A DNA stretch of 64,000 nt, from NCBI GenBank assembly GCA_049302185.1, contig JBAQLV010000010.1:38742-102741 (forward strand). Direction: 5' to 3'. Made by a program: the position numbers and the translations under genes. Under the pieces are notes generated by a model, which saw only the letters and a program-made list of their open reading frames with translations, made no database searches and was not told where the DNA came from. The stretch is from Thermodesulfovibrionales bacterium. Lineage in GTDB: Bacteria > Nitrospirota > Thermodesulfovibrionia > Thermodesulfovibrionales > UBA1546. Below, in pieces: positions 3,165-60,480 of this stretch. Within the stretch, counting starts at the first letter, position 1; each line of letters starts with the position of its first letter.

Positions 3165-3391
3165 CCTAATTTTGAGCGAGCCTCTTTAAACACTGCCTCC
3201 GCTGGTTTTGCCTTAACCCTGCCTTCTTTATACTCTCTATAGCGGCGTTCAGCTTCTTCTATCCAGAGCTTTTCCGCATTTGGGTCTTCTTCTGTATCCA
3301 AACTATGGATAAGATGTTCTGCTAATTGGGCTCGCTCATGAGGTGAAAGTCGGAGGGCTTTTCCTTCAATTTCTTTAACACTCAATGGCAT
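3161..3391 (-). CDS. Putative addiction-module antitoxin
   Basis: 76 aa, LSPHERAQLAEHLIHSLD-type N-terminus, translationally coupled to the ParE-like toxin. Confidence 0.7.
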   Translation of the reverse strand: MPLSVKEIEGKALRLSPHERAQLAEHLIHSLDTEEDPNAEKLWIEEAERRYREYKEGRVKAKPAEAVFKEARSKLG

Positions 3392-3760
3392 TAAATACCT
3401 CCAGTTACTATTTTTTTATATATTAACTTGAAGTTAAAGGTAATGCAAGCTGTCTTCCCCAAGACATTCTGACGATTATTAAAATAAGCAGACTAATCAC
3501 CCGCTATACTTACTGATGAGGTATGCCAGGTGCGACTAATCTTGCAATTCGCGCCATGCAGTTAATATATGACTACTGTTATACTCACTGAAATATTCCA
3601 AAAACCATCAGAGAGCGGTATGTTAAGGTGTCGAAAAATAAATTTTTTCACAATCCCGATGTGTATCGGGACATTATTTAAATACGTTTTTGAGTTAACT
3701 CAGGCTATTCTGAAATGTGAAGGGGTAATGATAGAATGAACATAAAAAGGAGACAATAGA

Positions 3761-4655: not shown

Positions 4656-4783
4656 GGGGATTGGTCCGCAATCCCTCTTCACGCTGTCATGCTGGCTTGT
4701 CCAGCATCCTTCCTGCTTGTCAGGAATCTCAGAATGATTCCGAACAAGTCGGAATGACAAACCCGACAAGCGGGAATGACAGT
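4656..4783. repeat. Mosaic of short hairpin units (family A: GTCATTCC..GGAATGAC, GATGCTGGACAAGCCAGCATGACA)
   Basis: Intergenic. The same modules recur at 43447-43551, 46347-46419, 54731-54806 (inverted order) and 58541-58631. Confidence 0.85.
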
Positions 4784-6851: not shown

Positions 6852-8046
6852 GATTATAAGGGTTTCAAGGGACTCTCTTATGGGCAACAGGGTAAGGTCG
6901 TTCCTTACAATGCTCGGCGTTGTTATCGGGGTTGCGTCCGTCATTATGCTTGTTTCAATAGGCGAGGGCGCAAGGTCCTACATAGGCAGAGAGCTTGGCA
7001 ATCTCGGAACGAACATATTGATTGTAGTGCCGGGCAAAACTTCTGCCAAGGGAGGGTTTCATCCGCCTGCCGCAACTACGGTCAGGAAACTTGTCTATGA
7101 TGATGCTCTAATAATTAAAAAACGTTCAAGGCATATTCAAGACGCAGTCCCGCTGATTCTTGGCACCTCCAAGATTAAATATCTGAACCAGAGCAGGGAT
7201 AATTCTGTAGTTGGGATTACGGAAACTTATTTTGATATCAGAAATCTCTCAGTTGAATCAGGCAGATTTATAAACGCATCGGATGTTGATTCAAGAAGAA
7301 AAGTATGCGTTCTCGGAAGGACAGTGAAAAAAGATCTTTTCGGAGATAAGAATGCGCTTGGCACCCTTGTGGCAATAGGCGACGGCAAATACCGCGTCAT
7401 AGGTGTGATGGAAAAGAAAGGCGTTACGCTCGGAATTGATTTTGATGACATAGTGTTTATACCTACAACCGCTGCGCAGGAATTGTTTGATACCGACAGC
7501 CTGTTTAATATAACTGTCAAGGTTAGAAGCGCAACTGAGATAGACGCTGCAAAAGAGGACATAAGGCAGATACTGATGAAAAGACATGCAGGCAGGGAAG
7601 ACTTTACGATAATGAGTCAGGATGAGATGGTTGCCGTGATGGGCAAGATATTGAATATCATGACTGCTGTGCTTGCAGGCATAGCTGCAATTTCCTTGAT
7701 TGTTGGCGGGATAGGGATAATGAATATAATGCTTGTCTCAGTAAGGGAGAGGACGCGGGAGATAGGGATAAGAAAGGCGCTTGGCGCAAAGAACAGGGAT
7801 ATTTTATTACAGTTTCTGATAGAGTCTGTTACGCTGAGCCTTATAGGCGGAACAGTGGGCATTCTGTTTGCTGGCTTGCTCTCTCTTGTTATTCCTTATT
7901 TTGTTGAATTTCTTCCGACACATCTTGCCCTGTGGTCTGTTATTGTCGCTTTTTTGTTTTCAGCGGCAGTCGGAATATTCTTCGGTGTATATCCTGCAAG
8001 AAAGGCATCGCTGTATGATCCCATAAAAGCGTTGAGGTATGAGTGA
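6838..8046 (+). CDS. ABC transporter permease (MacB/FtsX family)
   Basis: 402 aa with a MacB-type periplasmic domain and a C-terminal FtsX-like 3-TM bundle. It overlaps the ATPase gene. Confidence 0.9.
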   Translation: MDVIEIIRVSRDSLMGNRVRSFLTMLGVVIGVASVIMLVSIGEGARSYIGRELGNLGTNILIVVPGKTSAKGGFHPPAATTVRKLVYDDALIIKKRSRHIQDAVPLILGTSKIKYLNQSRDNSVVGITETYFDIRNLSVESGRFINASDVDSRRKVCVLGRTVKKDLFGDKNALGTLVAIGDGKYRVIGVMEKKGVTLGIDFDDIVFIPTTAAQELFDTDSLFNITVKVRSATEIDAAKEDIRQILMKRHAGREDFTIMSQDEMVAVMGKILNIMTAVLAGIAAISLIVGGIGIMNIMLVSVRERTREIGIRKALGAKNRDILLQFLIESVTLSLIGGTVGILFAGLLSLVIPYFVEFLPTHLALWSVIVAFLFSAAVGIFFGVYPARKASLYDPIKALRYE

Positions 8047-8148
8047 GGTATAGATTTTTTAGATGAGATGAACGTCTTGTGCATGGACGAAGCTTTTAGG
8101 TTTGTAAGTTTTCTGTTTGTGCCGCTGTTATGCGACCATTGTAGCAGT

Positions 8149-8892
8149 TTAGCGTCCGTCAACATCAAGCAATTTTGATCTCTTTTTTAACGTTCTTAAT
8201 ACAAGATAAGTTATTAATCCAATTATGAATAATAAACCCCAGCCAAAATCTACTTTAAATTTACCCTCTACAAATAAGCCTTCGAGGGAATCAAGAACAG
8301 GAAAAGATATAGTTATCACAAAAAAGGCAGTGTATTCTCTTTTAAGAACATTTTTGAATGAAAAAGGCAAAGCAGGTTTTCGCCAGCTCTTAAATTTTGG
8401 CAGAAAAGCTGGAGTCTTCTCTGCCCATTCTAAGAATAAAGCCCCATACTTTACTCGTAAAAAACCTTCTTCCGCAAATATTATACGTTCGTAATATATA
8501 AAAAATGCCAGAACGGCTATTAACACAAACCACCACACTTGAATAAACAATATTACTCCCCCAAAAATTATAAAATTTCCTAAATAAAGAGGGTGCCGAA
8601 CTATTGAATACATCCCTGTAGTATTAAGTGCTTCCGCTATCTGTTTTTTTGTATTTCTGCCTGATGTCCCTTTGGGGATATAACCTATAGTAAGGCAACG
8701 AATGGCAAGGCCGACAAAAGATAATAATAAACAGAAAATCTCCCAAAAGTGATCACTCACTTTTAAGACCCTTTTCAAAAATTCAGACTCATTTAAGGCA
8801 ATTAATAAGATTGGAAGGATTAAAAAAGGCAAGTAACTTCGCCATCTAAAAAGCCAATTGCCCTGCTTTTCTAATTCTTTATGGATAGTCAT
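8149..8892 (-). CDS. Membrane methyltransferase family protein (ICMT/PEMT-like)
   Basis: 247 aa, polytopic, with RHPLYLGNFIIFGG...YERIIFAEEGFL typical of the isoprenylcysteine carboxyl / phospholipid methyltransferase fold. Visibly AT-rich. Confidence 0.65.
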   Translation of the reverse strand: MTIHKELEKQGNWLFRWRSYLPFLILPILLIALNESEFLKRVLKVSDHFWEIFCLLLSFVGLAIRCLTIGYIPKGTSGRNTKKQIAEALNTTGMYSIVRHPLYLGNFIIFGGVILFIQVWWFVLIAVLAFFIYYERIIFAEEGFLRVKYGALFLEWAEKTPAFLPKFKSWRKPALPFSFKNVLKREYTAFFVITISFPVLDSLEGLFVEGKFKVDFGWGLLFIIGLITYLVLRTLKKRSKLLDVDGR

Positions 8893-8896
8893 TTAT

Positions 8897-9082
8897 TCAC
8901 TCCCCAATAGTGCCACAATGTCGCCTACTTCTTTTTAATAGATGAGTGGCGAGGTTATGTCTAACAGTATGCACAGAAACATCCTTTTTTTTAAGCATTA
9001 TCACCCCATAAGTAATGCCCTGCTTTGGAAATATGTATGTGCGTTTATTATTAATTAAAGCCCCTTTATTGTCAAGGAGCAT
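8897..9082 (-). pseudogene. Tyrosine recombinase C-terminal remnant, frameshifted
   Basis: VSVHTVRHNLATHLLK matches the HxLRHxxATHLL box. The following GDIVALLG segment is only readable in another frame, and there is no N-terminal domain. Confidence 0.55.
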
Positions 9083-9122
9083 AGCTTGTGCTTTTCAATG
9101 CGCATTAGTATCATAAGATTAA

Positions 9123-10103
9123 ATGCCGATAATAAAGGTTGAGAATTTAGTAAAGAGATTTGGCAGTATCACTGCTGTAAATAATATCTCCTTTAATGTG
9201 GAGGAAGGAGCGATATTCGGCTTCCTCGGGCCTAACGGCGCAGGCAAGACAACAACGATAAGCATCCTGTGTACACTGCTTGTGCCAACTTCAGGGAATG
9301 CTTTTGTGAATGGATATGACTGCACAAAAGAATCCTCATCTGTAAGGAGATCAATCGGCATAGTCTTTCAGGATACAACTCTGGATAAAGACCTAACCGC
9401 AGAGGAAAACCTTTTATTTCATGCGTATCTTTATAATGTTGAAAAGACCGAACGCAGAAAAAGGGTTGATGATGTCTTGAAGCTTGTTGATTTATTCAAC
9501 AGGAAAGATGACCTTGTTAAGAAATTTTCCGGAGGCATGAAGAGAAGGCTTGAAGTTGCAAGAGGGCTGATACACAGACCAAAGGTGCTGTTTCTGGATG
9601 AACCAACACTTGGGCTTGATCCGCAGAGCAGATCAAATCTATGGGAATTCATAACAGCGCTTCCGGAAAAATATGGAGTAACAATCTTCATGACGACGCA
9701 TTACATGGATGAGGCAGAGGTCTGCGATAACATAGCCATTATTGATAATGGAAACATTATTGCAATGAACAGTCCCGAAGAACTCAAAAAAGTGATAGGC
9801 GGGGATGTCATATATCTGAAAACGAGGGATAATGCAAAGGCAAAGGATGAGATAAAGAGCACGCTGGATATTGACGCATCAATAAGGGACGGCGAGCTTT
9901 TTATCTCAACAGTCAGGGGAGATACATGCATTCCCGAACTTATAAGGACACTCGGCGATAGTGTTTTGTCTGTGAGGCTCCAGAGGCCGACTCTGAATGA
10001 TGTTTTTTTAAAGCTGACAGGGAAGGCGATAAGAGACGAGGAGGGCGCTGATACGGATACGATAAAAGCGGAGGTGAGGGCTTACAGGAGGAGGCATGAG
10101 TGA
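9123..10103 (+). CDS. ABC transporter ATP-binding protein (DrrA/ABC-2 type)
   Basis: Walker A GPNGAGKTT, signature FSGGMKRR, Walker B LFLDEPT. Confidence 0.9.
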   Translation: MPIIKVENLVKRFGSITAVNNISFNVEEGAIFGFLGPNGAGKTTTISILCTLLVPTSGNAFVNGYDCTKESSSVRRSIGIVFQDTTLDKDLTAEENLLFHAYLYNVEKTERRKRVDDVLKLVDLFNRKDDLVKKFSGGMKRRLEVARGLIHRPKVLFLDEPTLGLDPQSRSNLWEFITALPEKYGVTIFMTTHYMDEAEVCDNIAIIDNGNIIAMNSPEELKKVIGGDVIYLKTRDNAKAKDEIKSTLDIDASIRDGELFISTVRGDTCIPELIRTLGDSVLSVRLQRPTLNDVFLKLTGKAIRDEEGADTDTIKAEVRAYRRRHE

Positions 10104-10147
10104 TGCCGCTCATTCTTATCCTGTTTCTACGAGGTTGAAAAACGAAT

Positions 10148-10912
10148 ATGGAATTTAATGCGATATACGTTATAGTTGCGCGGGAGTTCAAGAAATTTGT
10201 GAGGGAAAGGTCCAGGCTTGTCTCTGCAATAGCAAGGCCTCTTGTATGGCTTTTCCTTGTCGGCGCGGGGATGTCAAGGCTTGTCCCTCCTGTTGACGGC
10301 GTTTCATACATGCAGTTCATATTCCCGGGCATATTGGGCATGACAATTCTGTTCAGCGCAATGTTCTCCTCAATCTCTATTATCTGGGATAAAGAGTTTG
10401 GTTTTATGAAAGAGATTCTTGTTGCTCCTGTATCTCGGATATCTATAGTTGTAGGGAAGGCATTGAGCGGTATGATTATATCAACAATTCAGGCTGTTAT
10501 TGTACTTTTGCTTTTCCCTCTTCTTGGGCTTAAGCTTGGTGTTACAGATATAATCAGCGCAGTATTTATATGTATGCTTGTGTCTTTCTCGGTGTCTGCC
10601 TTCGGAATAGTAATAGCGACTTTTTATGAGAGTTATGAGAGCTTTAGCGCAATTATGAATTTCATCATCATGCCGATGTTTTTTCTCTCAGGCGCGATGT
10701 ATCCTGTAAAACTTCTGCCAGAGGCTTTGAGGTTTGCAGCCAAGCTTAATCCGCTCACTTACGGCGTAGATGCGCTGAAGCATGTGATCTCTCCGCTTGC
10801 GCACGGGCCGATGAGCCCTGATTTCAGCATTGTTACTGACCTTGCGGTTATTATTGTGCTGTCGGTTATCTTTGTTTTTGCCGGAGCAAAGGCATTTGAG
10901 AGAAGAGGGTAG
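10148..10912 (+). CDS. ABC-2 type transporter permease
   Basis: 254 aa, six predicted TM helices, directly downstream of the DrrA-like ATPase. Confidence 0.85.
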   Translation: MEFNAIYVIVAREFKKFVRERSRLVSAIARPLVWLFLVGAGMSRLVPPVDGVSYMQFIFPGILGMTILFSAMFSSISIIWDKEFGFMKEILVAPVSRISIVVGKALSGMIISTIQAVIVLLLFPLLGLKLGVTDIISAVFICMLVSFSVSAFGIVIATFYESYESFSAIMNFIIMPMFFLSGAMYPVKLLPEALRFAAKLNPLTYGVDALKHVISPLAHGPMSPDFSIVTDLAVIIVLSVIFVFAGAKAFERRG

Positions 10913-10971
10913 GAGAGTTTGACACAGCAGCGCTTTTTTGGTGTATAATAAAAATCTTCTAACCGAGAAAT

Positions 10972-11047
10972 TCCCGGGTAGCTCAGCTGGCAGAGCAGGT
11001 GGCTGTTAACCACCCTGTCGGGGGTTCGAATCCCTCCCCGGGAGCCA
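10972..11047 (+). tRNA. tRNA-Asn (anticodon GTT), CCA encoded
   Basis: Cloverleaf folded by eye: acceptor tcccggg/cccggga, anticodon loop ctGTTaa, T-loop ttcgaat. Confidence 0.9.
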
Positions 11048-11125
11048 AATACCCAAAATCCTGTCTCTTTTTTTCATAATCTGATAATATGAATTATATC
11101 AAATCTTAAAGAATAGGTATGCGTT

Positions 11126-13171
11126 ATGAATATCGATGAGTTATGCATTAACACTATCAGGATGCTTTCTGTTGATATGGTGGAAGAAGCCAATTCAGGG
11201 CATCCGGGAATGCCAATGGGCGCGGCTCCTATGGCGTATGTTCTCTGGACAAGGTTTCTTAAACATAATCCTGAAAATCCAAAATGGCATGACAGGGATC
11301 GGTTTGTACTTTCCGCAGGTCACGGCTCTGCTCTTCTTTATTCGCTTCTGCATTTAACCGGATACGATTTGCCCATTGAAGAAATTAAGAGATTCAGGCA
11401 ATGGGGAAGCAAGACGCCCGGGCATATTGAGTATGGAGATACGCCCGGAGTTGAATGCACGACAGGTCCTCTGGGGCAGGGATTTGGGATGGGTGTAGGA
11501 ATGGCGATTGCCGAAAGATTTTTTGCGGCAAAGTTTAATCAACCGGGACATGAAATAGTAAATCACTTCACATATGCGATAGTTAGCGACGGAGATATGA
11601 TGGAGGGAATCTCCTCAGAAGCAGCATCACTTGCAGGGCACTTTAAGCTGGGAAATCTGATATACCTCTATGACAATAACCACATTTCTCTGTCAGGAGA
11701 GACAAAACTTACCTTCACCGAGGACGTATGCAAGAGGTTTGAGGCATACGGATGGCATGTTCAGAATGTTGAAGACGGCAATGACATAGAGGCTGTTTCA
11801 AGGGCAGTAAAAAAAGCACAGGAAGAAACAGAACGCCCATCCTTGATTTCGGTAAGGACGCACATAGGATATGGAAGCCCTCATAAACAGGATACATTTG
11901 AAGTGCACGGCTCTCCGCTCGGGCATGATGAGGTCACAGCCACAAAGAAGAACCTCGGCTGGCCCTTGGAACCAAAATTTTATATACCGAAAGAAGCTAT
12001 CACGCAATTCAGAAAAGCGGTAGATAGAGGCGCAAGGCTTGAATCAGAATGGAAGGAGAAATTTAATTCATATAGGAAAACATATCCTGAGTTTGCATCT
12101 GAATGGGATAATATGATGAATTTCAAATTCCCTGATGCATGGGATAAGGACATCCCTGTTTTCCCTCCCGACTCGAAGGGCATTGCAACACGCTCTGCTT
12201 CGGGAAAAGTAATGAATGAAATAGCGAATCATATCCCTTCTTTGATAGGCGGCTCTGCTGATTTGAATCCTTCAACCAATACTGAGCTTAAAGGAAAAGG
12301 CAATTTCCAGTTTCCTGATTCAGCGGATAAAAATGTGCAGGGTGCAGCATCAGGTGAATGGGGATATGGAGGGGCAAACATAGCTTTTGGCGTGCGAGAA
12401 CATGCAATGGGAAGCATATCAAACGGAATGGCGCTTCATGGAGGATTGATTCCTTTTGCGGGCACTTTTTTAATATTTTCAGATTATATGAGACCTGCCG
12501 TCAGGCTTGCTGCGTTAATGAAATTGCATGTCATCTATATCTTTACGCATGACTCCTTAGCCCTTGGAGAGGACGGGCCGACTCACCAGCCCGTTGAACA
12601 GCTTTCAAGCCTGAGGGCAATGCCGGGATTGACAGTTATAAGACCTGCTGATGCCAATGAAGCTGCAAAGGCATGGGAAATAGCAGTTACGCATAAGCAC
12701 GGTCCTGTTGCTCTGATTTTCACAAGACAAAAGGTTCCTGTTATAGACAGAGATAAGTATGAATCTGCCGAAGGAGTAAAAAGAGGAGGCTATATACTTG
12801 CTGATTCTGCTCCTCATAATCCTGAAGTTATATTAATTGCAACCGGTTCAGAGGCGCATATTGCGCTTGAGGCATATGAAAGGCTTAAGACTGAAAACAT
12901 TAAAGCGCGCGTTGTGAATATGGCGTCGTGGGAACTTTTTGAGGAGCAGTCGGAAGAGTATAAGAATAAGGTGCTGCCGCGTGATATTAAGGCGAGGGTC
13001 TCTGTTGAGGCAGGTTCAACGCATGGCTGGCATAAGTATATCGGATTGGACGGAATAGTAATTGGAATAGACCATTTCGGAGCATCTGCACCAGGAGAGA
13101 TACTGCTTGAGAAGTTCGGATTTACAACGGAAAATATAGTAAATAAGGCAAAGATGCTTTTAGCGAAATAG
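11126..13171 (+). CDS. tkt: Transketolase
   Basis: 681 aa with the GHPG motif, a SDGDMMEG ThDP site and [16 protein letters not shown]. Confidence 0.95.
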
Positions 13172-53077: not shown

Positions 53078-54456
53078 TCATTGTAGGCGGCGGTATTTCA
53101 GGGCTTTCGCTATCCTATGCGCTTCTTGAATCTAACCCATCAGCAGACGTAGTAATATTTGAATCCGAAAAAAGACCCGGCGGAAAGATATGGACAGAAA
53201 AAGTGAACGGTTTTCTCTGCGAAGGCGGAGCTAACGGTTTTCTTGACAACAGGCCAAAGACTTTAGAGCTTGCCTCAAAACTTCTGATTAATCCGCTGAG
53301 AAGCAGTGACGCAGCCAGAAAGAGATATGTTTTTTCTGGCGGGAAATTAAACATTCTGCCTGAATCTCCTTTATCGTTTCTTACTTCCGATCTCTTGAGC
53401 CTTTACGGACGCTTAAGGGTAATGTATGAGTTTTTCGCTCCAAGTCGGTACGACTCGCAACCGAGGGACAGCTCAGATGATGAAACCCTTGCTGATTTTG
53501 CAAGGAGAAGACTCGGCAAAGAAGCATACGAAAAACTCATTGATCCGATGGCATCAGGCATTTATGCGGGGAATCCTGAGTCGCTAAGCCTTAAAAGTTG
53601 TTTTCCAAAGGTATTCAAACTTGAAGAGAAATACGGAAGCCTTATAAAAGGCATGATAAAACTGAAGAGAGAGGCTAAAAAATCAGGAAATCAAAAAATC
53701 GGAGCCGGCCCCGGAGGCACGCTTACATCTTTTCACGACGGCATGGGAATGATGATAGATTCCATGAAAAATTCATTGAAGGAAAGACTCAGAGCCGGGA
53801 GCAAAGTAATCTCTGTTGAAAGGAAGAATAAGGGTTATGCTGTCCATCTCTCTGACGGCATGGTTGTAGAAGCTGAGATTGTTGTCATTGCATCTCCTGC
53901 ATATTCAGCAGCGGAGATTTTAAAAAATCTTGACAGGCATCTCTCATCGGTTCTTTCAGAAATAACGTATCCTTCTGTCTCTGTTGTGTGTTTTGGATAC
54001 AGGAAAGAACGCATTGCTCATAAACTGGATGGATTTGGTTTTCTCATCCCATATAGGGAGCGCAGAAAAATCCTCGGTTCATTATGGGATTCAAGCATTT
54101 TTCCCGGAAGGGCTCCTGACGGATATGCGCTTTTAAGGAGCATGGTGGGAGGCGCAAGGGCATCCGAGATTGCGATGCAAGATGACAGCAGGCTGATAGA
54201 CATTGTGGCAGAGGAATTAGGGCATATTATGGATATAAAAGTTCAGCCTGATTTTGTAAAAATTTACAGACACGAAAAGGCAATTCCGCAGTATAATATA
54301 GGTCATGACAGGAAATTGAAAGCAGTTGACGAGATGTTATTAAAATACAGAAACCTGTATTTAACAGGGAATGCATACAGGGGAATAGGCGTTAATGACT
54401 GCATAGAAAATTCATATAAATTGGCAGGGACAATAATCAGAAAGGAGGAAATATAA
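53065..54456 (+). CDS. hemY: Protoporphyrinogen/coproporphyrinogen oxidase (HemY type, FAD-dependent)
   Basis: 463 aa with IVGGGISGLS dinucleotide-binding N-terminus. It overlaps the hemH end. Confidence 0.88.
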   Translation: MDRIVIVGGGISGLSLSYALLESNPSADVVIFESEKRPGGKIWTEKVNGFLCEGGANGFLDNRPKTLELASKLLINPLRSSDAARKRYVFSGGKLNILPESPLSFLTSDLLSLYGRLRVMYEFFAPSRYDSQPRDSSDDETLADFARRRLGKEAYEKLIDPMASGIYAGNPESLSLKSCFPKVFKLEEKYGSLIKGMIKLKREAKKSGNQKIGAGPGGTLTSFHDGMGMMIDSMKNSLKERLRAGSKVISVERKNKGYAVHLSDGMVVEAEIVVIASPAYSAAEILKNLDRHLSSVLSEITYPSVSVVCFGYRKERIAHKLDGFGFLIPYRERRKILGSLWDSSIFPGRAPDGYALLRSMVGGARASEIAMQDDSRLIDIVAEELGHIMDIKVQPDFVKIYRHEKAIPQYNIGHDRKLKAVDEMLLKYRNLYLTGNAYRGIGVNDCIENSYKLAGTIIRKEEI

Positions 54457-54457
54457 A

Positions 54458-54688
54458 TTGAAAGAACAGGAGATAGCAGAGATTCTTTTAAAGGAAAACG
54501 AGGAGTATAAAAAACTTGGAGAGGAACATAAAAGTCTTGAAGGGGTGCTTGCAGAAATAGACAAGAAAGTTTATCTCACACCGGAAGGAGAGGTAGAGAG
54601 AAAGAGGATTCAGAAACTGAAACTTACAAAAAAGGACAGAATGGCAGAGCTTATAAGGGAATACAAAAAGAGCCATTCGCTGAATTAA
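54458..54688 (+). CDS. DUF465 (YdcH-like) small coiled-coil protein
   Basis: 76 aa with the LKLTKKDRMAELI-type C-terminus. TTG start. Confidence 0.65.
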   Translation: MKEQEIAEILLKENEEYKKLGEEHKSLEGVLAEIDKKVYLTPEGEVERKRIQKLKLTKKDRMAELIREYKKSHSLN

Positions 54689-54730
54689 ACCTGAATTGAG
54701 CGATTCTATACTCTGTAATTCTGTCTTGTC

Positions 54731-54806
54731 TGTCATTCCGACTTGTTCGGAATCCTTCCTGCTTGTCAGGAATCGTCAGAAAGATGCTGGACAAGCCAGC
54801 ATGACA
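54731..54806. repeat. Family A hairpin mosaic, inverted relative to 4684-4765
   Basis: tgtcattccgacttgttcggaatc + cttcctgcttgtcaggaatc + gatgctggacaagccagcatgaca, the same three modules as the 4.7-kb copy. Confidence 0.85.
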
Positions 54807-54865
54807 AAAAAGGGTGAGGGGTATTTTCGGGTCAATGACAGGAATAAGAAAGGGGTTTTGTTTTC

Positions 54866-56518
54866 ATGAGAAGCAGGACAATTAAGGAAGGATTAGAGCG
54901 TGTTCCGCACAGGGCGCTCCTTTATGCGACAGGCATTCCAAAGAGTGAAATGAAAAAGCCGTTTATCGGCGTTGCAACAAGTTTCACTGATATTATTCCG
55001 GGACACATTGGCATGAGGGATCTGGAGAGATTCATAGAGAAAGGAATACATACAGGAGGAGGCTATCCGTTCTTTTTTGGAATTCCCGGCATCTGCGACG
55101 GCATTGCAATGGGACACAGCGGCATGCATTATTCTCTTCCGTCAAGGGAACTGATTGCCGACATGGTGGAGACTATAGCTCAGGCACATCAGCTTGACGG
55201 GCTTGTGCTCCTTACTAACTGCGACAAGATTACGCCCGGAATGCTCATGGCTGCGGCAAGGATTAATATCCCCTCAATAGTCGTTACTGCAGGCCCTATG
55301 ATTTCAGGACATCTAAGGGGCAAAAGGCTTTCGCTTGTCAATGACACCTTTGAAGCAGTTGGAAAGTATAAAAAAGGGTTGATAAAAAATGATGAGCTTG
55401 AAGCGCTTGAAATGTGCGCATGTCCGGGCGCAGGCTCATGTCAGGGCATGTACACTGCAAATACAATGGCATGCGTTACAGAATCGCTCGGTATGAGTCT
55501 TCCAAGATGCGCCACTGCGCTTGCTGTATCTGCCGACAAGAGGAGAATAGCCTTTGCAAGCGGAGAGCGCATCGTTGAACTGGTAAAGAAAAATATCACG
55601 CCGAGAAAGATAATGACGCGGAAGGCGTTTGAGAATGCGATAATGGCTGACCTTGCATTAGGCGGCTCAACCAATACTGTCCTTCACATCCCTGCAATAG
55701 CGCATGATGCAGGAGTGGAACTTCCGCTTGAGGCATTTGATATCCTGAGCAAGAAAACCCCTCATCTTGCAAATATGCTTCCCGGAGGCGAGCATTATCT
55801 TGAAGACCTTGAATGGGCAGGAGGCATCCCGGCTTTGATGAAGAGATTAAGGGGGAGTTTGAATAATTGCATGACAGTAAGCGGCAGGAGTATTTTTGAG
55901 ATTGCTGATTCCGCAGAGATTATAAATGAAAACGTTATAAGGCCTCTGAGCAAGGCTTATCATAAAGAAGGAGGCATCGCAATCCTGAGGGGCAATCTTG
56001 CGCCTGACGGAGCAGTTGTAAAACAGTCTGCCGTTAGCAAGAACATGATGAAGTTTGAAGGCAGCGCAAAGGTGTTTAACTCAGAGGAAGAGGGCATGAA
56101 GGCAATCCTCAATGGAAAGATAAAGGCAGGCGATGTTGTTGTTATCAGGTATGAGGGGCCTAAGGGAGGTCCCGGAATGAGGGAAATGCTTTCTCCGACA
56201 GCAACAATCGCGGGCATGGGATTGAGCGAATCAGTTGCCCTGATAACAGACGGAAGGTTTTCAGGCGGGACAAGAGGCCCATGCATAGGGCACATATCGC
56301 CTGAAGCAATGGAAGGCGGAATCATAGCAATTATCAAAAACGGCGACAGGATAAAAATTGACATTCCATGGAGAAGGGTTGATGTTCTTCTCTCCGAGAA
56401 AGAGATAAAGGAAAGGCTCAGCAAGTGGAAACCGCCAAAGCCTAAGATAACAAAGGGCTATCTTTCAAGATACGCAAGGATGGTCACTTCTGCTGGAACA
56501 GGAGCGGTGATGAAGTAG
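54866..56518 (+). CDS. ilvD: Dihydroxy-acid dehydratase
   Basis: 550 aa with CDKITPGM, Fe-S ligand context and GGSTN. Confidence 0.95.
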
Positions 56519-56559
56519 CGTCTTGAGTGCTTGAGAAGCTTGAAAGGTTTTGACGTTAG

Positions 56560-56808
56560 TCATACATCTTCTCTGGCCTCAGACCACTTTTTAAACCGAC
56601 CACGTTTGAAATCCTCATCGCCGCTCATAATGCTATTCAGAAAATCTTTATCCTTGATAATCTCTTTTGTAGCTTCGAGTTCCTTAATTTCTCGTTCTGC
56701 CTGACGCATTCCTGCCGTGTCTTTAGGCTTCCACCTGTTGTCCCAGCCTTTCTTGTGCGGTTTGCATAATCCACAACTTCTTTTTTTAGTTTTGTATTGT
56801 TTTCTCAT
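56560..56808 (-). CDS. Small basic CxxC protein with an antitoxin-like C-terminal helix
   Basis: 82 aa. The N-terminus reads KKRSCGLCKPHKKGWDNRWK. The C-terminal IIKDKDFLNSIMSGDEDFKRGRFKKWSE resembles tails of archaeal/thermophile Phd/RelB-type antitoxins. Confidence 0.45.
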   Translation of the reverse strand: MRKQYKTKKRSCGLCKPHKKGWDNRWKPKDTAGMRQAEREIKELEATKEIIKDKDFLNSIMSGDEDFKRGRFKKWSEAREDV

Positions 56809-56960
56809 ATTGATTTTCAGTTAAACTTCAATTTATCCCTTTTCTGCCTGCAATGCGCGGCTAACGTTCCCAGCATACCCGACGTTTTTCCGTAGCGAAG
56901 CGAAGGAAAAATGTGCCGAAGGCCGAGAGCCTGAGCAGAGCGCGAAGTGGGTATGCTGTG

Positions 56961-58071
56961 TTAGGCGATGGGCAGAGCACCATTTTTTGTTCTCTTGATC
57001 TTCAATCCCACGTCTTTTTTCCGTCGTAGCTAAGAATGTTGAAGATGTAAACTCGCTTTATTCTAAGTTTCCTTTACCTATATTACAGTTTGAACAAAGA
57101 GTTTTAAGATTTTCAAAAGTAGTTTCACCATCTTTTGACCAGGGTATTATATGATCAACATGTAATATTATTTTAGGGTCAGTCGCCGGAGATCTGCCAC
57201 AGTATCGGCACTTAAAATTATCTCTTCTCATTACCTTAAATCTAAGTCTATCATTGACTTCCCTTTTAGTTTGATGTGTATTCATTAGTTTTTGTGATGA
57301 TTTTGGTCTCTTGGCTGATGGTGTTTTATCTGCAAACCCAGAAACTAATTCTTCATTGGGATATTCTATAATTGTTGCTTGAGGTAATATGCCCTCTTTA
57401 ATAATTATAGAATTTTCACCCTCAATTGTTGTTTCTTCTTCTTTATTGACATACTCAATAAATCGCTCAAGTGATTTCCGCCAAGTACCAAAATTATGCA
57501 CATAACCACTTCCTGAATATTTAGAAAACGGTATTCGCATATCAGAAAAATGTGGTTGCCTACCGAGTTTTATCCAAACTTCTTCTAAATTTTTAAAATA
57601 CTCCTCATCCGATATACTTGGATGTTCTCTTCTTTTTAAACCGGTTTTTTCTTTTGCTTTTATCCAAGAACCAAATCTATACTCAAGTGTTGAACTATGA
57701 AATTTCCCATGCCGGTTATATTCATCTCTAGTAATTGAATCATTTTTTAACTTAAAAGAAACCCGTTGTAAGTCTGCAATTAATTCTGCATCTTTTATAA
57801 TATTTTTTGTTCTACTTTTTCCGCTTTTTAAACCTGCTTTCGCCAAAGCGTTAGACCAAGAGCCAAATCTGTTATAAAATATGGTAACTCCAAATTTACC
57901 ATGCTTTTTATATTCCCGTTGGGTTAATGAATCTGTTTTTAACTCGGAAGCGACATGTTTTAAGTCCGCAATTAATTCTTTATCTGCAATATGTCTGTTA
58001 AATTTATCTAACTCAAATTTAATCATATTTACTCAACTCTTTTTTATTTTGGTGCTCTGCCTTTCGCCTAA
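56961..58071 (-). mobile_element. HNH endonuclease cassette bounded by 22-bp imperfect inverted repeats
   Basis: TTAGGCGATGGGCAGAGCACCA (56961-56982) matches the reverse complement of 58050-58071 at 20/22. The interior is AT-rich. Confidence 0.35.
57058..58026 (-). CDS. HNH endonuclease with three N-terminal homing-endonuclease-associated repeats
   Basis: 322 aa with three copies of LIADL..V...L..DS(L/I)T..EY..HGKF......RFGSW..A. The C-terminus reads CRYCG...HVDHIIPWSKDG...NLKTLCSNCN. Confidence 0.85.
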   Translation of the reverse strand: MIKFELDKFNRHIADKELIADLKHVASELKTDSLTQREYKKHGKFGVTIFYNRFGSWSNALAKAGLKSGKSRTKNIIKDAELIADLQRVSFKLKNDSITRDEYNRHGKFHSSTLEYRFGSWIKAKEKTGLKRREHPSISDEEYFKNLEEVWIKLGRQPHFSDMRIPFSKYSGSGYVHNFGTWRKSLERFIEYVNKEEETTIEGENSIIIKEGILPQATIIEYPNEELVSGFADKTPSAKRPKSSQKLMNTHQTKREVNDRLRFKVMRRDNFKCRYCGRSPATDPKIILHVDHIIPWSKDGETTFENLKTLCSNCNIGKGNLE

Positions 58072-58189
58072 CTACTTCATAGACGACTTATGTCGCTTTT
58101 TGTCCCGATTTGGGATGTTAGACGACATATGGCGGATATGCTGCGTCTGGCAGATACCCGCTTCCCTTCCTTTTTATTGCCAATAAATG

Positions 58190-58435
58190 TCAAGCATCAC
58201 CTCCCTTTGCGATACTTAAGCTGTCTAACGGACTCTGTATTTTACCTAAACTCTTTGTGCTTACATGCGTATAAATCTCAGTTGTCTTGCTATGTGCGTG
58301 TCCAAGCAACTCTTGTATATATCGTAAATCCACACCACTTTCAAGAAGATGTGTAGCGAAGCTGTGGCGTAGTGTATGTGAAGAGTTTTTGCTGACTGTA
58401 ATTATCCCATTAATAATATCTCCTGAAAATTCGAT
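58190..58435 (-). pseudogene. Tyrosine recombinase C-terminal fragment
   Basis: The minus strand reads [42 protein letters not shown] (R-H-R-Y box II region with the catalytic Tyr). The open frame starts right after a stop, with no N-terminal or core domain. Confidence 0.75.
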
Positions 58436-58540
58436 TTAGTAGATAATATATTCCCCAAATCCTTTATTGTCAATTGAAAATCTCCCTCTGTTTCTACCAA
58501 TTTAGAAATGTCCGGTTTTATGTTATTGCTCAATGCGGTT

Positions 58541-58631
58541 GTCATTCCCGCGTGTCGGGAATCTTTCTTTCCCGCACTCAGGCGTGTTCGCTGTGGCAAC
58601 AAAGAAAGATGCTGGACAAGCCAGCATGACA
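58541..58631. repeat. Family A hairpin units
   Basis: gtcattcccgcgtgtcgggaatc ... gatgctggacaagccagcatgaca, upstream of ilvB. Confidence 0.8.
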
Positions 58632-58737
58632 GACAGGGGAGGGGTAAGATATAAATAAAAACATCAGGTTAATGCAAGAATTTATGGACATTTTCATAAT
58701 CTTTTGTGGTAAAATTATTTAAATTTTAAAAGGAGCT

Positions 58738-60480
58738 GTGTGCGATATGAAGATTTCAGGCTCAGAGATATTAATTGAATGTCTGAAAAAGGAAGGGGTT
58801 AAGTATATCTTCGGCTATCCCGGAGGCGTTGTGCTGAACATCTTTGACTCCCTTTATGACAATAAGGATTTACGTCTGATTCTCACAAGGCACGAACAGG
58901 GTGCTGTTCATGCGGCAGACGGTTATGCGAGGTCATCTGGAAAAGTTGGCGTTGCTCTTGTGACATCAGGCCCCGGAGCGACAAATACAGTTACAGGCAT
59001 TGCTACTGCCTCAATGGATTCCATACCGCTTGTTGTGTTTTCAGGGCAGGTGCCGACAATGCTTATCGGCAATGATGCATTTCAGGAGGCTGATATAGTA
59101 GGCATAACAAGGCCATGCACAAAATATAACTACCTTGTTAAGGATGTGAATGACCTTGCGAGGATAGTGAAAGAGGCATTTTATATAGCGTCTTCAGGCA
59201 GGCCGGGCCCTGTGCTTATAGACCTTCCGAAAGATGTAACTGTAGGAAAAGCTGATTTTGTCTGGCCTGAACTTGACATAAGGAGCTACAAACCCACTTA
59301 CGAAGGCAATAAGTGGATGATTACGCAGGGCGCGCATCTCATAGCAAAATCAAAGAAACCTGTGATAATTGCCGGAGGAGGTGTGATACTCTCAGGAGCT
59401 GCCAAAGAACTCAGAGAGTTCGCAGAGCATACTGACATCCCTGTGACTATGACACTTATGGGGCTTGGAGGATTTCCGGGTTCGCATAAACTTTCCCTCG
59501 GCATGCTTGGAATGCACGGGACTTATTATGCCAACAAGGCAGTTCAGGATTCAGACCTTATTATTGCCGTAGGAATGCGCTTTGATGACAGGGTGACAGG
59601 CAAGGTTGATGCATTCGCGCCTAATGCAAAGATAATTCACATAGACATTGACCCGACATCAATAAAAAAGAATGTGAGAGTTGATGTTCCTGTAGTGGGT
59701 GACGTTAAGAAAGTTCTGGCAGTGATGAATAAGGTGCTGAAAGAGGAAGTGAAAGAACAGTGGGGCGAGGTCAGAAAGGCATGGCTCAAGCAGATAGATG
59801 CATGGCGCGCAGAAAGGCCTCAGACTTATACTCACAGCGATGAGATTATAAAACCGCAGTTTGTTGTTGAGAAGATATATGAGCTTACAAAGGGAGATGC
59901 GATTATAACAACAGAGGTAGGGCAGAACCAGATGTGGACAGCTCAGTTTTATAAATTTGATAAACCGAGAACACTTCTGACATCAGGCGGGCTCGGCACC
60001 ATGGGTTATGGTTTCCCCGCTGCTATCGGCGCGCAGTTCGCACATCCTGAAAAACTTGTTATCGATATTGCAGGCGATGGGAGCATACAGATGAACATAC
60101 AGGAGCTTGCCACAGCTGTTATAAATAAGCTTCCCGTTAAGGTAGCCATACTCAACAACGGATACCTCGGGATGGTAAGACAGTGGCAGGAACTGTTCTT
60201 TGATGAAAGATATTCCCATACCAAGCTTGATGAGAGCGTACCTGACTTTGTAAAGATTGCCGAGGCATACGGCGCTGTGGGATTAAGGGCAACAAAACCG
60301 AGCGAGGTTGAACCTGTGCTTAAAGAGGCTTTCAGGATAAAGAAGACTGTGTTTATGGATTTTGTTGTTGACTGGAAGGAAAATGTTTATCCGATAGTTC
60401 CTCCAGGCGCAGCAATAGACCATATGCTTTTTGAACCGGCAGAAAAAAAGGCCGAAAAGAAATTAAAGTCAGTGAAATAA
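58738..60480 (+). CDS. ilvB: Acetolactate synthase, large subunit (biosynthetic type)
   Basis: 580 aa with a ThDP motif [16 protein letters not shown]...GDGS...NN. The true start may be the ATG at 58747. Confidence 0.95.

Follow-up and report, generated by a model that had tools for sequence, protein, structure and literature searches.

Integrons, namely, sedentary chromosomal integrons, clusters of attC sites lacking integron integrases (CALINs), and especially the "inverted-integrase" group, where intI and the cassettes are codirectional (PMC4889954; PMC9668308), are the described systems closest to the element analyzed here, a gene for an HNH nuclease that is framed by inverted repeats and lies in an islet between ilvD and ilvB. 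The gene is located in a 64-kb stretch (64,000 nucleotides, referred to as the window) of the genome of a Thermodesulfovibrionales bacterium. Integron cassettes are delimited by the core site GTTRRRY and the inverse core site RYYYAAC (PMC5027507), and an attC site in the strict sense is an imperfect hairpin of 57 to 141 nt with R''/R' and L''/L' boxes and a variable loop. Three articles (PMC4889954; PMC4792948; PMC7790495) describe the additional domain I2 as the feature that defines the integron integrase IntI and as a requirement for attC recombination, and Cury et al. 2016 (PMC4889954) did not consider recombinases without I2 that lie near attC sites to be integron integrases.

We conclude that the HNH gene is very probably the cargo of an integron-type cassette. 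This cassette would be the first one at attI, and the platform to which it belongs, integron-like and decayed, would occupy the minus strand of the ilvD-ilvB interval. This platform and its relatives share a number of features with integrons. (i) They form arrays of mostly promoterless cassettes in one orientation. (ii) The cassettes are bounded by G|TTRRRY and end in an imperfect hairpin, RYYYAAC...GTTRRRY, of 54 to 180 nt with a variable loop. (iii) An attI adjoins the gene of an Xer-related tyrosine recombinase, immediately downstream of it, as reported for archaeal integrons (PMC9668308). (iv) The site sequences are similar within a lineage and are shared by different cargo. (v) Toxin-antitoxin and defence genes are abundant among the cargo, and arrays without an integrase are common. 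There are also clear differences. (i) The recombinases of the family lack the additional domain of IntI, of about 35 to 40 residues. (ii) The internal loop of the hairpin is asymmetric, with 1 nt opposite 4 to 6 nt (A / GRAAC), whereas integrons have an unpaired spacer of 5 to 6 nt on both arms. (iii) The L stem is usually perfect, without extrahelical bases. (iv) The cassettes have terminal inverted repeats of about 20 bp that share the conserved motif G-M-A-[A|G]-T as well as an A·C mismatch, whereas in class 1 integrons only 2 to 7 bp beyond the core are complementary. (v) The family is present in Bacillota and in many archaeal and candidate phyla, whereas no complete integrons were found in Firmicutes according to PMC4889954. 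Judged from sequence, the platform family departs from canonical integrons in its integrase, in the geometry of its sites, and in its long cassette arms.

The inverted repeats as probable ends of an integron-type cassette

An earlier note on this DNA had reported 22-bp inverted repeats around the HNH gene and had read them either as the palindromic target of a mobile cassette or as the trace of a repeat-mediated capture. The observation is real, and its interpretation is partly supported. The 22-mer TTAGGCGATGGGCAGAGCACCA (positions 56961 to 56982, plus strand) recurs as an inverted copy with 2 mismatches (20/22) at 58050 to 58071; this is the sole pair in the window, with no further copies at up to 3 mismatches and a shuffle expectation of 0. 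According to a repeat finder, the arms extend to 23 nt (56960 to 56982 and 58050 to 58072), are complementary at 21 of 23 positions (91%), and are 1,067 nt apart. The distance from the upstream arm to the ATG of the HNH gene is 23 nt, and that from the stop codon to the downstream arm is 75 nt, both within the 80 bp stated previously. The outer 7 nt, GTTAGGC and GCCTAAC, match integron core sites. The features that make up the cassette and its surroundings are as follows.

56865 to 58071, minus strand: complete HNH gene cassette, 1,207 nt, beginning with TTAGGC and ending with the G that opens the next core site
58050 to 58072, minus strand: 5' arm of the HNH cassette, R' core site GTTAGGC followed by GAAA and GGCAGAGCACCA; fits the family consensus
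57058 to 58026, minus strand: HNH cargo gene, 322 aa, three HNH_repeat units and an HNH domain
56960 to 56982, minus strand: 3' arm of the HNH cassette, TGGTGCTCTGCC followed by CATC and the R'' inverse core site GCCTAAC; first part of attC
56859 to 56966, minus strand: attC of the HNH cassette, 108 nt, match to covariance model R1
58073 to 58189, minus strand: attI-like region, 117 nt between the integrase stop codon and the first cassette, with direct repeats and hairpins
58190 to 58435, minus strand: C-terminal remnant of an IntI/XerA-like tyrosine recombinase gene, PF00589 (E = 4e-17), with HxxR, H, and Y retained

The downstream arm opens an attC site whose elements are, in order, R'' GCCTAAC, A, L'' CAGCATACCC, a 65-nt variable loop (56881 to 56945), L' GGGTATGCTG, GGAAC, and R' GTTAGCC, with a putative crossover between 56865 and 56864. 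It thus spans GCCTAAC to GTTAGCC over 108 nt and has a covarying L stem, an asymmetric spacer, and mostly no extrahelical bases. The site was recognized by a covariance model, R1, that was built from an alignment of 20 sites (A5) of other loci and that did not include the window in its training set. In A5, the L stem is paired in 92.9% of the cells and shows compensatory changes at 10 of 11 pairs; its covariation score of 0.524 compares with 0.161 in shuffles (0/500) and 0.04 to 0.13 in slid controls. Over the whole window, R1 gave a single, full-length match, at 56859 to 56966 on the minus strand (34.3 bits, E = 1.2e-4). When applied to 875 kb of fetched loci, the model gave 64 matches at an E value of ≤0.01 (the 20 training sites and 44 new ones), all 64 of them on the integrase strand. 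Class 1 attC sites are missed by this model, which had no match in four class 1 integron loci or in the loci with an empty ilvD-ilvB site. The minus-strand match in the window and the strand bias of 64/64 settle the orientation of the cassette and rule out a plus-strand reading of the palindromic sites, in which the HNH gene would be reversed within its cassette. An earlier detector based on regular expressions and folding had been noisy, with false positives in coding DNA, and had missed sites that carry the R' of a noncognate next cassette. The "variable" loops of the A5 sites hold conserved motifs, CCAAAT near the middle and ACTTC directly before L', which is unexpected for a loop thought free to vary.

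Upstream of the cassette on its own strand, the attI-like region separates it from the integrase remnant. The best NCBIfam matches of the remnant are the integron integrase TIGR02249 (85.6 bits) and XerD (80.7 bits), and in a tblastn search 58196 to 58384, the last 63 codons, matched residues 224 to 286 of the integrase P0179 with 90% identity. The integrase fragment previously noticed at this position is therefore genuine and belongs to the HNH islet. As the N-terminal two thirds are missing, the integrase of the window is inactive. The window lacks the 5' portion of the platform, deleted together with this part of the gene. The attI-like region has direct repeats at 58080 to 58095 and 58119 to 58134 according to the repeat finder, and its strand folds with a z score of -3.5.

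P0179 itself is intact and is encoded in a Nitrospirae metagenome-assembled genome (MAG; GCA_016208915.1, loci L024 and L028), where it is followed by attI and then by different cassettes with terminal repeats of 21 to 23 bp. The DNA of L024 is about 88% identical to the window from 58378 to 58062, and the identity ends just inside the cassettes, after GTTAG..GAAA, because the first cassettes differ, with a PccH-like gene in L024 and the HNH gene in the window. A conserved region of 117 nt thus adjoins the integrase gene as a putative attI, and the first cassette would start at a crossover between G58072 and T58071. In the family, the integrase gene is codirectional with the cassettes and lies about 100 to 140 nt upstream of the insertion point. 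Among the 41 of 80 integrase loci that have at least 700 nt downstream of the integrase, the first cassette arm was found 46 to 287 nt after the stop codon in 18 (46 to 135 nt in 16 of these), compared with 0/30 control windows. At 33 of the 80 loci, the contig continues for less than 700 nt beyond the stop codon, and at 6 more it ends before the stop codon; these short remainders suggest variable or repeated downstream DNA and fit variability at the population level.

Long arms as a trait of the cassette family

A blind search for inverted repeats of 20 nt that begin with GTT and are spaced 200 to 7,000 nt apart retrieved 45 pairs in 0.85 Mb of loci, compared with 3 to 7 in shuffled sequences. 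After curation, 34 cassettes with terminal repeats of about 20 bp were obtained, which stem from many phyla and carry unrelated cargo; the tabulation has 35 rows, including one misregistered pair. Their arms follow the consensus GTTRNNY-G-M-A-[A|G]-T plus a variable paired stem, with GTTRNNY-G-M-A-A-(T/G)-N8 as the form of the left arm, and the arms of the window match this pattern, which is made up as follows.

Positions 1 to 7: GTTRNNY, paired in 97 to 100%
Position 8: G
Position 9: A or C, always matched
Position 11: A on the left arm in 32/35, G on the reverse-complemented right arm in 29/35
Position 12: mostly T
Positions 13 to 20: free sequence, paired in 74 to 97%
Beyond position 20: pairing decays

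At position 11, the two strands therefore differ: the top strand has a conserved A·C mismatch, the bottom strand a T·G wobble. The class 1 cassettes compared (aadA1, aadA2, aacA4, blaOXA-1, and catB3) have 2 to 7 matching bases beyond the core and lack the G-M-A-[A|G]-T motif. Some extension therefore exists in canonical integrons, but that of the present family is much longer and patterned. In aadA2, aacA4, and catB3 of class 1 integrons (loci L108 to L111), 5 or 6 extra complementary bases follow the 7-bp core, for instance, GTTAGACGGCAAA in catB3.

A gene that lies between inverted repeats of about 20 bp and adjoins a tyrosine recombinase gene has the geometry of a DNA inversion switch. This is the geometry of the HNH islet, and there are weak NCBIfam matches to tyrosine-type DNA invertases (E = 8e-6). 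An inverton, in which the adjacent recombinase flips the gene between the repeats and so turns it on or off relative to an outside promoter, is nevertheless very unlikely. The two arms differ systematically at position 11 and their orientation relative to the integrase strand is constant, whereas free inversion would randomize this. In addition, the window and the related loci L001 and L022 agree in the orientation of the HNH cargo, the arms are followed by an attC hairpin and are arranged in arrays of direct cassettes, and the invertase families score far under Xer/IntI.

The folding of the arms bears on the cassette reading and on a further alternative. The junction of the excised HNH cassette circle folds with -41.8 kcal/mol (top strand) and -45.5 kcal/mol (bottom strand), corresponding to z scores of -7.9 and -9.2, whereas the integrated site folds with -24.9 and -31.3 kcal/mol, respectively. 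The bottom strand gave the more stable fold in 11 of 15 sites. According to the alternative, the arms act in RNA, where pairing between the 5' and 3' untranslated regions would close the mRNA for stability or translation control, and both arms indeed lie in presumably transcribed untranslated regions, at the distances from the gene given above. We consider it just as improbable as the inversion switch. Read in the sense strand, the would-be mRNA, the conserved mismatch is C·A, but in the antisense DNA it is a T·G wobble, and the antisense strand folds better; the pairing is therefore tuned for the bottom DNA strand and not for a transcript. An Rfam search of 54400 to 59000 at an E value of ≤1 found nothing, and the left flank folded as RNA no better than shuffles (z = 0.33). 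With this Rfam result, the idea that the repeat closes the ORF-bearing loop of a group I or II intron or of a HEARO/omega-type RNA was dropped as well.

In the cassette reading, the inverted repeats would be the cassette's own recombination-site ends, R' G|TTAGGC plus 16 nt upstream and 16 nt plus R'' GCCTAAC downstream, and mobility would be catalyzed by the neighboring IntI/XerA-like tyrosine recombinase. In the excised circle, the arms would adjoin, with a junction that would read ...GGAACG|TTAGGCGAAAGG..., and the predicted folds suggest that the arms pair to a basal stem of 23 bp beneath the attC hairpin, a stem that could not form in the integrated cassette. The substrate would probably be a folded single strand in which the A·C mismatch may have a role. 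The better folding of the bottom strand and its T·G wobble, compared with C·A in the top strand, hint indirectly that the recombining strand of attC may be the bottom one, as in integrons. The extended arm could supply a long duplex R arm to an Xer-like enzyme that has no I2 and could favor the excised over the integrated cassette as a substrate. Extended arms would thus provide a simple structural asymmetry between the excised and integrated states that could bias capture over loss. The copy in the window is frozen, as its integrase is cut to about the last 63 residues, unless an intact copy acts in trans.

Exchange of cargo and frames between loci

A scan of metagenomes for the 22-mer, which the earlier note had recommended, retrieved 11 loci. 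Three of them (L018, L020, and L022) are related to the window, and in all three the match is a cassette end; the other eight share no flanks, have no HNH gene, appear chance-like, and lie mostly in GC-rich DNA. The HNH gene is present with both arms in L022, where the cassette follows an integrase pseudogene with an internal deletion, and in L001, where the encoded protein is 91% identical. The same pair of arms frames a 595-aa GmrSD-type gene in L018 (6569 to 6591 and 8489 to 8511) and a 786-aa AAA_13/PDC-S06 gene in L020 (5437 to 5459 and 7920 to 7942). In L018, L020, and L022, an attC-type layout follows the arms, and in L018 the upstream arm is preceded by another attC-type hairpin, which ends in AGAAC-GTTAGGC. 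The cassettes form arrays of one orientation (64/64 on the integrase strand) and are exchangeable between contexts: in the window and L022, attI precedes the HNH cassette, whereas in L018 another attC precedes a cassette that has the same arms but different cargo.

Conversely, HNH genes that encode proteins 80 to 86% identical are found without these arms in L002 to L012. In the aligned flanks of L002 to L005, DNA similarity to the window covers the ORF plus or minus about 10 nt, and no cassette frame was recognized around the HNH gene in L002 and L008. In L004, L006, and L007, the HNH ORF lies in a different cassette, which starts with G|TTAGGT and ends with ACCTAAC...CAGCCGATCGCT-tac-AGCGTCGGCTG-at-GTTGAGC; L004 and L006 share this cassette, and their unrelated left flanks diverge exactly at G|TT. 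The breakpoints of homology between loci thus fall at GTTRRRY/RYYYAAC core sites.

Some further observations concern these loci. The segments L018:8489-8590 (GmrSD) and L022:2016-2123 (HNH), from different metagenomes, have in common the arms and most of the attC (ACAGCATAAAAGGTTCGTG..GGCACTCACCCAAAT). In the frame of L006 and L004, the untranslated flanks of the window cassette are not shared. In L020, positions 7990 to 12199 hold an unusually large, 4.2-kb cassette of three genes (NurA-like, HerA-like, and a 406-aa ORF) with the same attC type.

Free-standing HNH homing endonuclease genes resemble the gene studied here in combining an HNH domain with DNA-binding repeats, in being AT-rich, and in their patchy distribution across phyla. 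In the 322-aa protein, PF18780 HNH_repeat is matched by three units (E = 3e-41), and the C terminus holds a PF01844 HNH domain (E = 5e-14), in agreement with the earlier description of three homing-endonuclease-associated repeats and an HNH nuclease. PF18780 is indeed named "homing endonuclease associated repeat"; homologues of the protein number 1,334, and the closest ones, 79 to 91% identical, are spread over several phyla. The interior is AT-rich, also as described before, with a GC content of 0.31 to 0.33 compared with 0.45 to 0.51 in ilvD/ilvB. In a free-standing homing element, the repeats would be its ends or its palindromic target, and the unit from arm to arm would be copied by repair after cutting. 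This explanation, which we consider slightly less probable still than the two above, is largely refuted already. The same arms frame the GmrSD and AAA_13 genes without an HNH gene, HNH genes at 80 to 86% protein identity occur without the arms and partly in another cassette frame, the arm consensus is common to 34 cassettes with unrelated cargo, and the arm ends are tyrosine recombinase core sites that adjoin attC and attI. Furthermore, the empty ilvD-ilvB spacer of relatives does not resemble the arms, and there is no intron, intein, or conserved target gene; the bounded unit is a recombinase cassette that also carries non-HNH cargo. The earlier proposal of a mobile cassette delimited by the repeats is thus retained, but not that of a palindromic target of the nuclease: since the same 22-mer pair frames the genes of L018 and L020, which lack HNH, the repeats are neither a feature of the HNH gene nor the target of its product. 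The nuclease is cargo and has no part in mobility, and HNH-driven mobility is rejected.

Least probable of all is a dispersed repeat of the repetitive extragenic palindrome or miniature inverted-repeat transposable element (MITE) type that flanks the gene by chance or mediated its capture. The window does hold MITE-like palindromes (family A), but these are unrelated in sequence to the 22-mer. The latter occurs just twice in the 64 kb (chance expectation, 0), and its three related metagenome matches are all cassette ends, the other eight being chance-like; the same counts lend no support to the repeat-mediated capture suggested earlier or to a dispersed repeat. Two findings are relevant to the making of cassettes: identical recombination-site frames surround unrelated genes, and a single gene occurs in unrelated frames. 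According to Cury et al. 2016 (PMC4889954), the mechanism that creates new cassettes is unknown.

A family of integrases without the I2 domain

When genomes were scanned with an alignment of these integrases, more than 579 relatives were retrieved, from which 80 loci were kept. These span Nitrospirota, Thermodesulfobacteriota, WOR-3, Atribacterota, Spirochaetota, Bacteroidota, Bacillota, Methanophagales, Altarchaeum, Thermoplasmata, Micrarchaeota, and others. Six full-length members (P0122, P0123, P0127, P0131, P0143, and P0179) match NF040815 (recomb_XerA_Arch) with 242 to 249 bits, above the cutoff of 220, and TIGR02249 with 210 to 238 bits, below the cutoff of 265. The TIGR02249 alignment of these six is in two stretches (profile positions of about 2 to 180 and 260 to 315). 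Accordingly, residues 13 to 172 and 197 to 278 of P0179 align with 10 to 171 and 238 to 319 of VchIntIA (2a3v), and the 24 residues in between stand opposite 66 at the additional domain, a gap of about 42 residues at the place of I2. An insertion of the size of this domain was present in 0 of the 80 integrase loci. In the strict sense, the term "integron" does not apply, since the recombinase family misses the IntI definition both by its TIGR02249 scores and by this gap.

In contrast, P0179 aligns unbroken and end to end with archaeal XerA (Protein Data Bank entries 4a8e and 5hxy; 149 and 146 bits), which it resembles also in passing the cutoff of NF040815. The integrases differ from the Xer/XerA recombinases that act at dif in that most of them have some 65 additional residues as an extra N-terminal domain, in that they are present in multiple copies, and in that they are followed by attI and cassette arrays, not by a single dif. 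Several MAGs have two or more copies on different contigs (L029/L030, L032/L051, L035/L043, and L093/L102). The family therefore does not fit chromosome dimer resolution by Xer/dif, in which a single-copy housekeeping recombinase serves one dif site.

These data raise the possibility of a distinct and so far uncharacterized class of integron-like capture platforms that crosses domain boundaries and of which the islet would be a relic, with an I2-less recombinase intermediate between XerA and IntI, covarying attC sites, and repeats of about 20 bp with an obligatory A·C/T·G asymmetry. We put this forward tentatively, as possible rather than probable. If true, cassettes could be recombined as folded DNA without a need for I2, the system could be the ancestral state of, or an independent solution to, integron recombination, and gene capture of the integron type would extend to Bacillota and to many archaeal and candidate phyla. 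That I2-less integrases are consistently followed by attI and arrays of covarying hairpins is at odds with the view of Cury et al. 2016, and it makes the need for I2 in folded-site recombination directly testable. In the literature, of which our coverage was incomplete, no earlier description of I2-less integron-like platforms or of extended attC stems was found. A search of the supplements of Ghaly et al. 2022 retrieved neither motifs of this integrase family nor accessions of our archaeal loci, although the family may still overlap with their "archaeal integrons".

In three loci, attC-type sites precede the integrase gene by a few hundred bases and lie on the same strand as the gene (L069:7425-7503, L066:7242-7319, and L033 at about 7400 to 7520). 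The integrase gene may lie within arrays or may be carried like a cassette; a conserved 5' boundary of integrase genes as cassettes was looked for, and none was found.

The islet between ilvD and ilvB

The HNH cassette, attI, and integrase remnant are parts of an AT-rich islet of 2.16 kb. Its order on the minus strand is a MITE-like hairpin, the integrase remnant, attI, the HNH cassette (58071 to 56865), and a second cassette with an 82-aa ORF. The remaining features are as follows.

56522 to 58682, minus strand: inserted islet, probable relic of an integron-like platform (integrase remnant, attI, and two cassettes); the site is empty in relatives
56522 to 56864, minus strand: second cassette, 3' truncated, with the 82-aa ORF (56560 to 56808); starts with TTAGCCGCGCATTGCAGGCAGAAAAGG and has a degenerate attC remnant at its end
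58540 to 58631, no strand: MITE-like palindrome ("family A hairpin"), arms of 31 nt, 77% complementary, at the expected place of the 5' part of the integrase gene

The comparison of ilvD-ilvB spacing in relatives, likewise recommended earlier, establishes the islet as a true insertion. In L112 and L119, whose IlvD is 98% identical, 84 nt separate the ilvD stop from the ilvB start; the homology of the window to these loci ends at 56521 and resumes at 58683, and 17 nt of the 84-nt spacer are replaced. The HNH gene with its terminal repeats would hence be a captured and now stranded cassette that shows how the ilvD-ilvBN operon was split. At the distal junction (56516 to 56530 of the window compared with L112:7690-7712), the empty site reads CGAAAC|GCTACTT, like the GRAAC|GTTRRRY end of the family attC. 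From this likeness, the islet may have entered at a secondary insertion site, which stays tentative because the proximal junction is unclean.

About the first 20 to 25 nt of the second cassette, i.e., the core site and arm, are homologous to cassette starts in L029 and L034. The cassettes of these loci differ in cargo and carry the cognate 3' arm GCCTGCAACGGACGGCTAAC, which is missing from the second cassette of the window. The attC remnant of the latter consists of GACTAAC (56555 to 56561) and the loop motif AAACCTTTCAAGCTTC. The ORF at 56560 to 56808 exists as reported, but its designation as antitoxin-like is unsupported, since it matched no family in Pfam, NCBIfam, PADLOC, or PHROG.

Several points weigh against the interpretation as an integron-type cassette on a decayed platform. 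(i) The homology of L001 to the window stops exactly after R'' (GCCTAAC|A) and not at the end of attC, which is unexplained. (ii) The integrase family has no I2 domain and falls below the TIGR02249 cutoff. (iii) At the proximal junction of the islet, 17 nt have been lost, unlike in a clean site-specific insertion. (iv) The second cassette has no intact attC. (v) The crossover points are placed from breakpoints of homology. (vi) With its integrase a fragment, this cassette may never move again. As a separate observation on L001, positions 1171 to 1400 hold no remainder of attC after the HNH cassette, and a family attC is located further on, at 3342 to 3431.

Regarding the function of the cargo, comparison of the HNH protein with the PADLOC, NCBIfam, and PHROG-type family libraries gave generic HNH matches only. 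An identity as IscB or Cas9, based on NCBIfam matches, was rejected, as those matches span the HNH domain alone. At other loci, the neighbors of the HNH gene include PIN, Fic, PemK, AbiJ/Abi_C, and DUF433 genes. Cassettes with the same frame carry the GmrSD and PDC-S06 genes, and the cargo of related cassettes is rich in defence genes. Phage defence carried by integron cassettes is known (bioRxiv 10.1101/2024.07.02.601719). By analogy with the other cargo, the HNH protein is most likely a defence or restriction-type nuclease. Arrays with a cargo this rich in defence nucleases would be a source of candidate antiphage genes in uncultured anaerobes.

The family A hairpin noted earlier is real and is not part of the cassette system. 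Partial copies are found at 54778 to 54806 and at 4684 to 4708 of the window, and sequences related to it (gtcattgcgagg...aagcaatctc) occur within the linker of several integrase genes (L028, L033, and L047). Finally, a second tiny remnant of the integrase family is present at 8933 to 8989 on the minus strand, inside a 61-aa ORF (8897 to 9082); its 19 residues are 74% identical to residues 220 to 238 of P0179 (E = 1.6e-4), and it may represent another decayed platform in the same genome.

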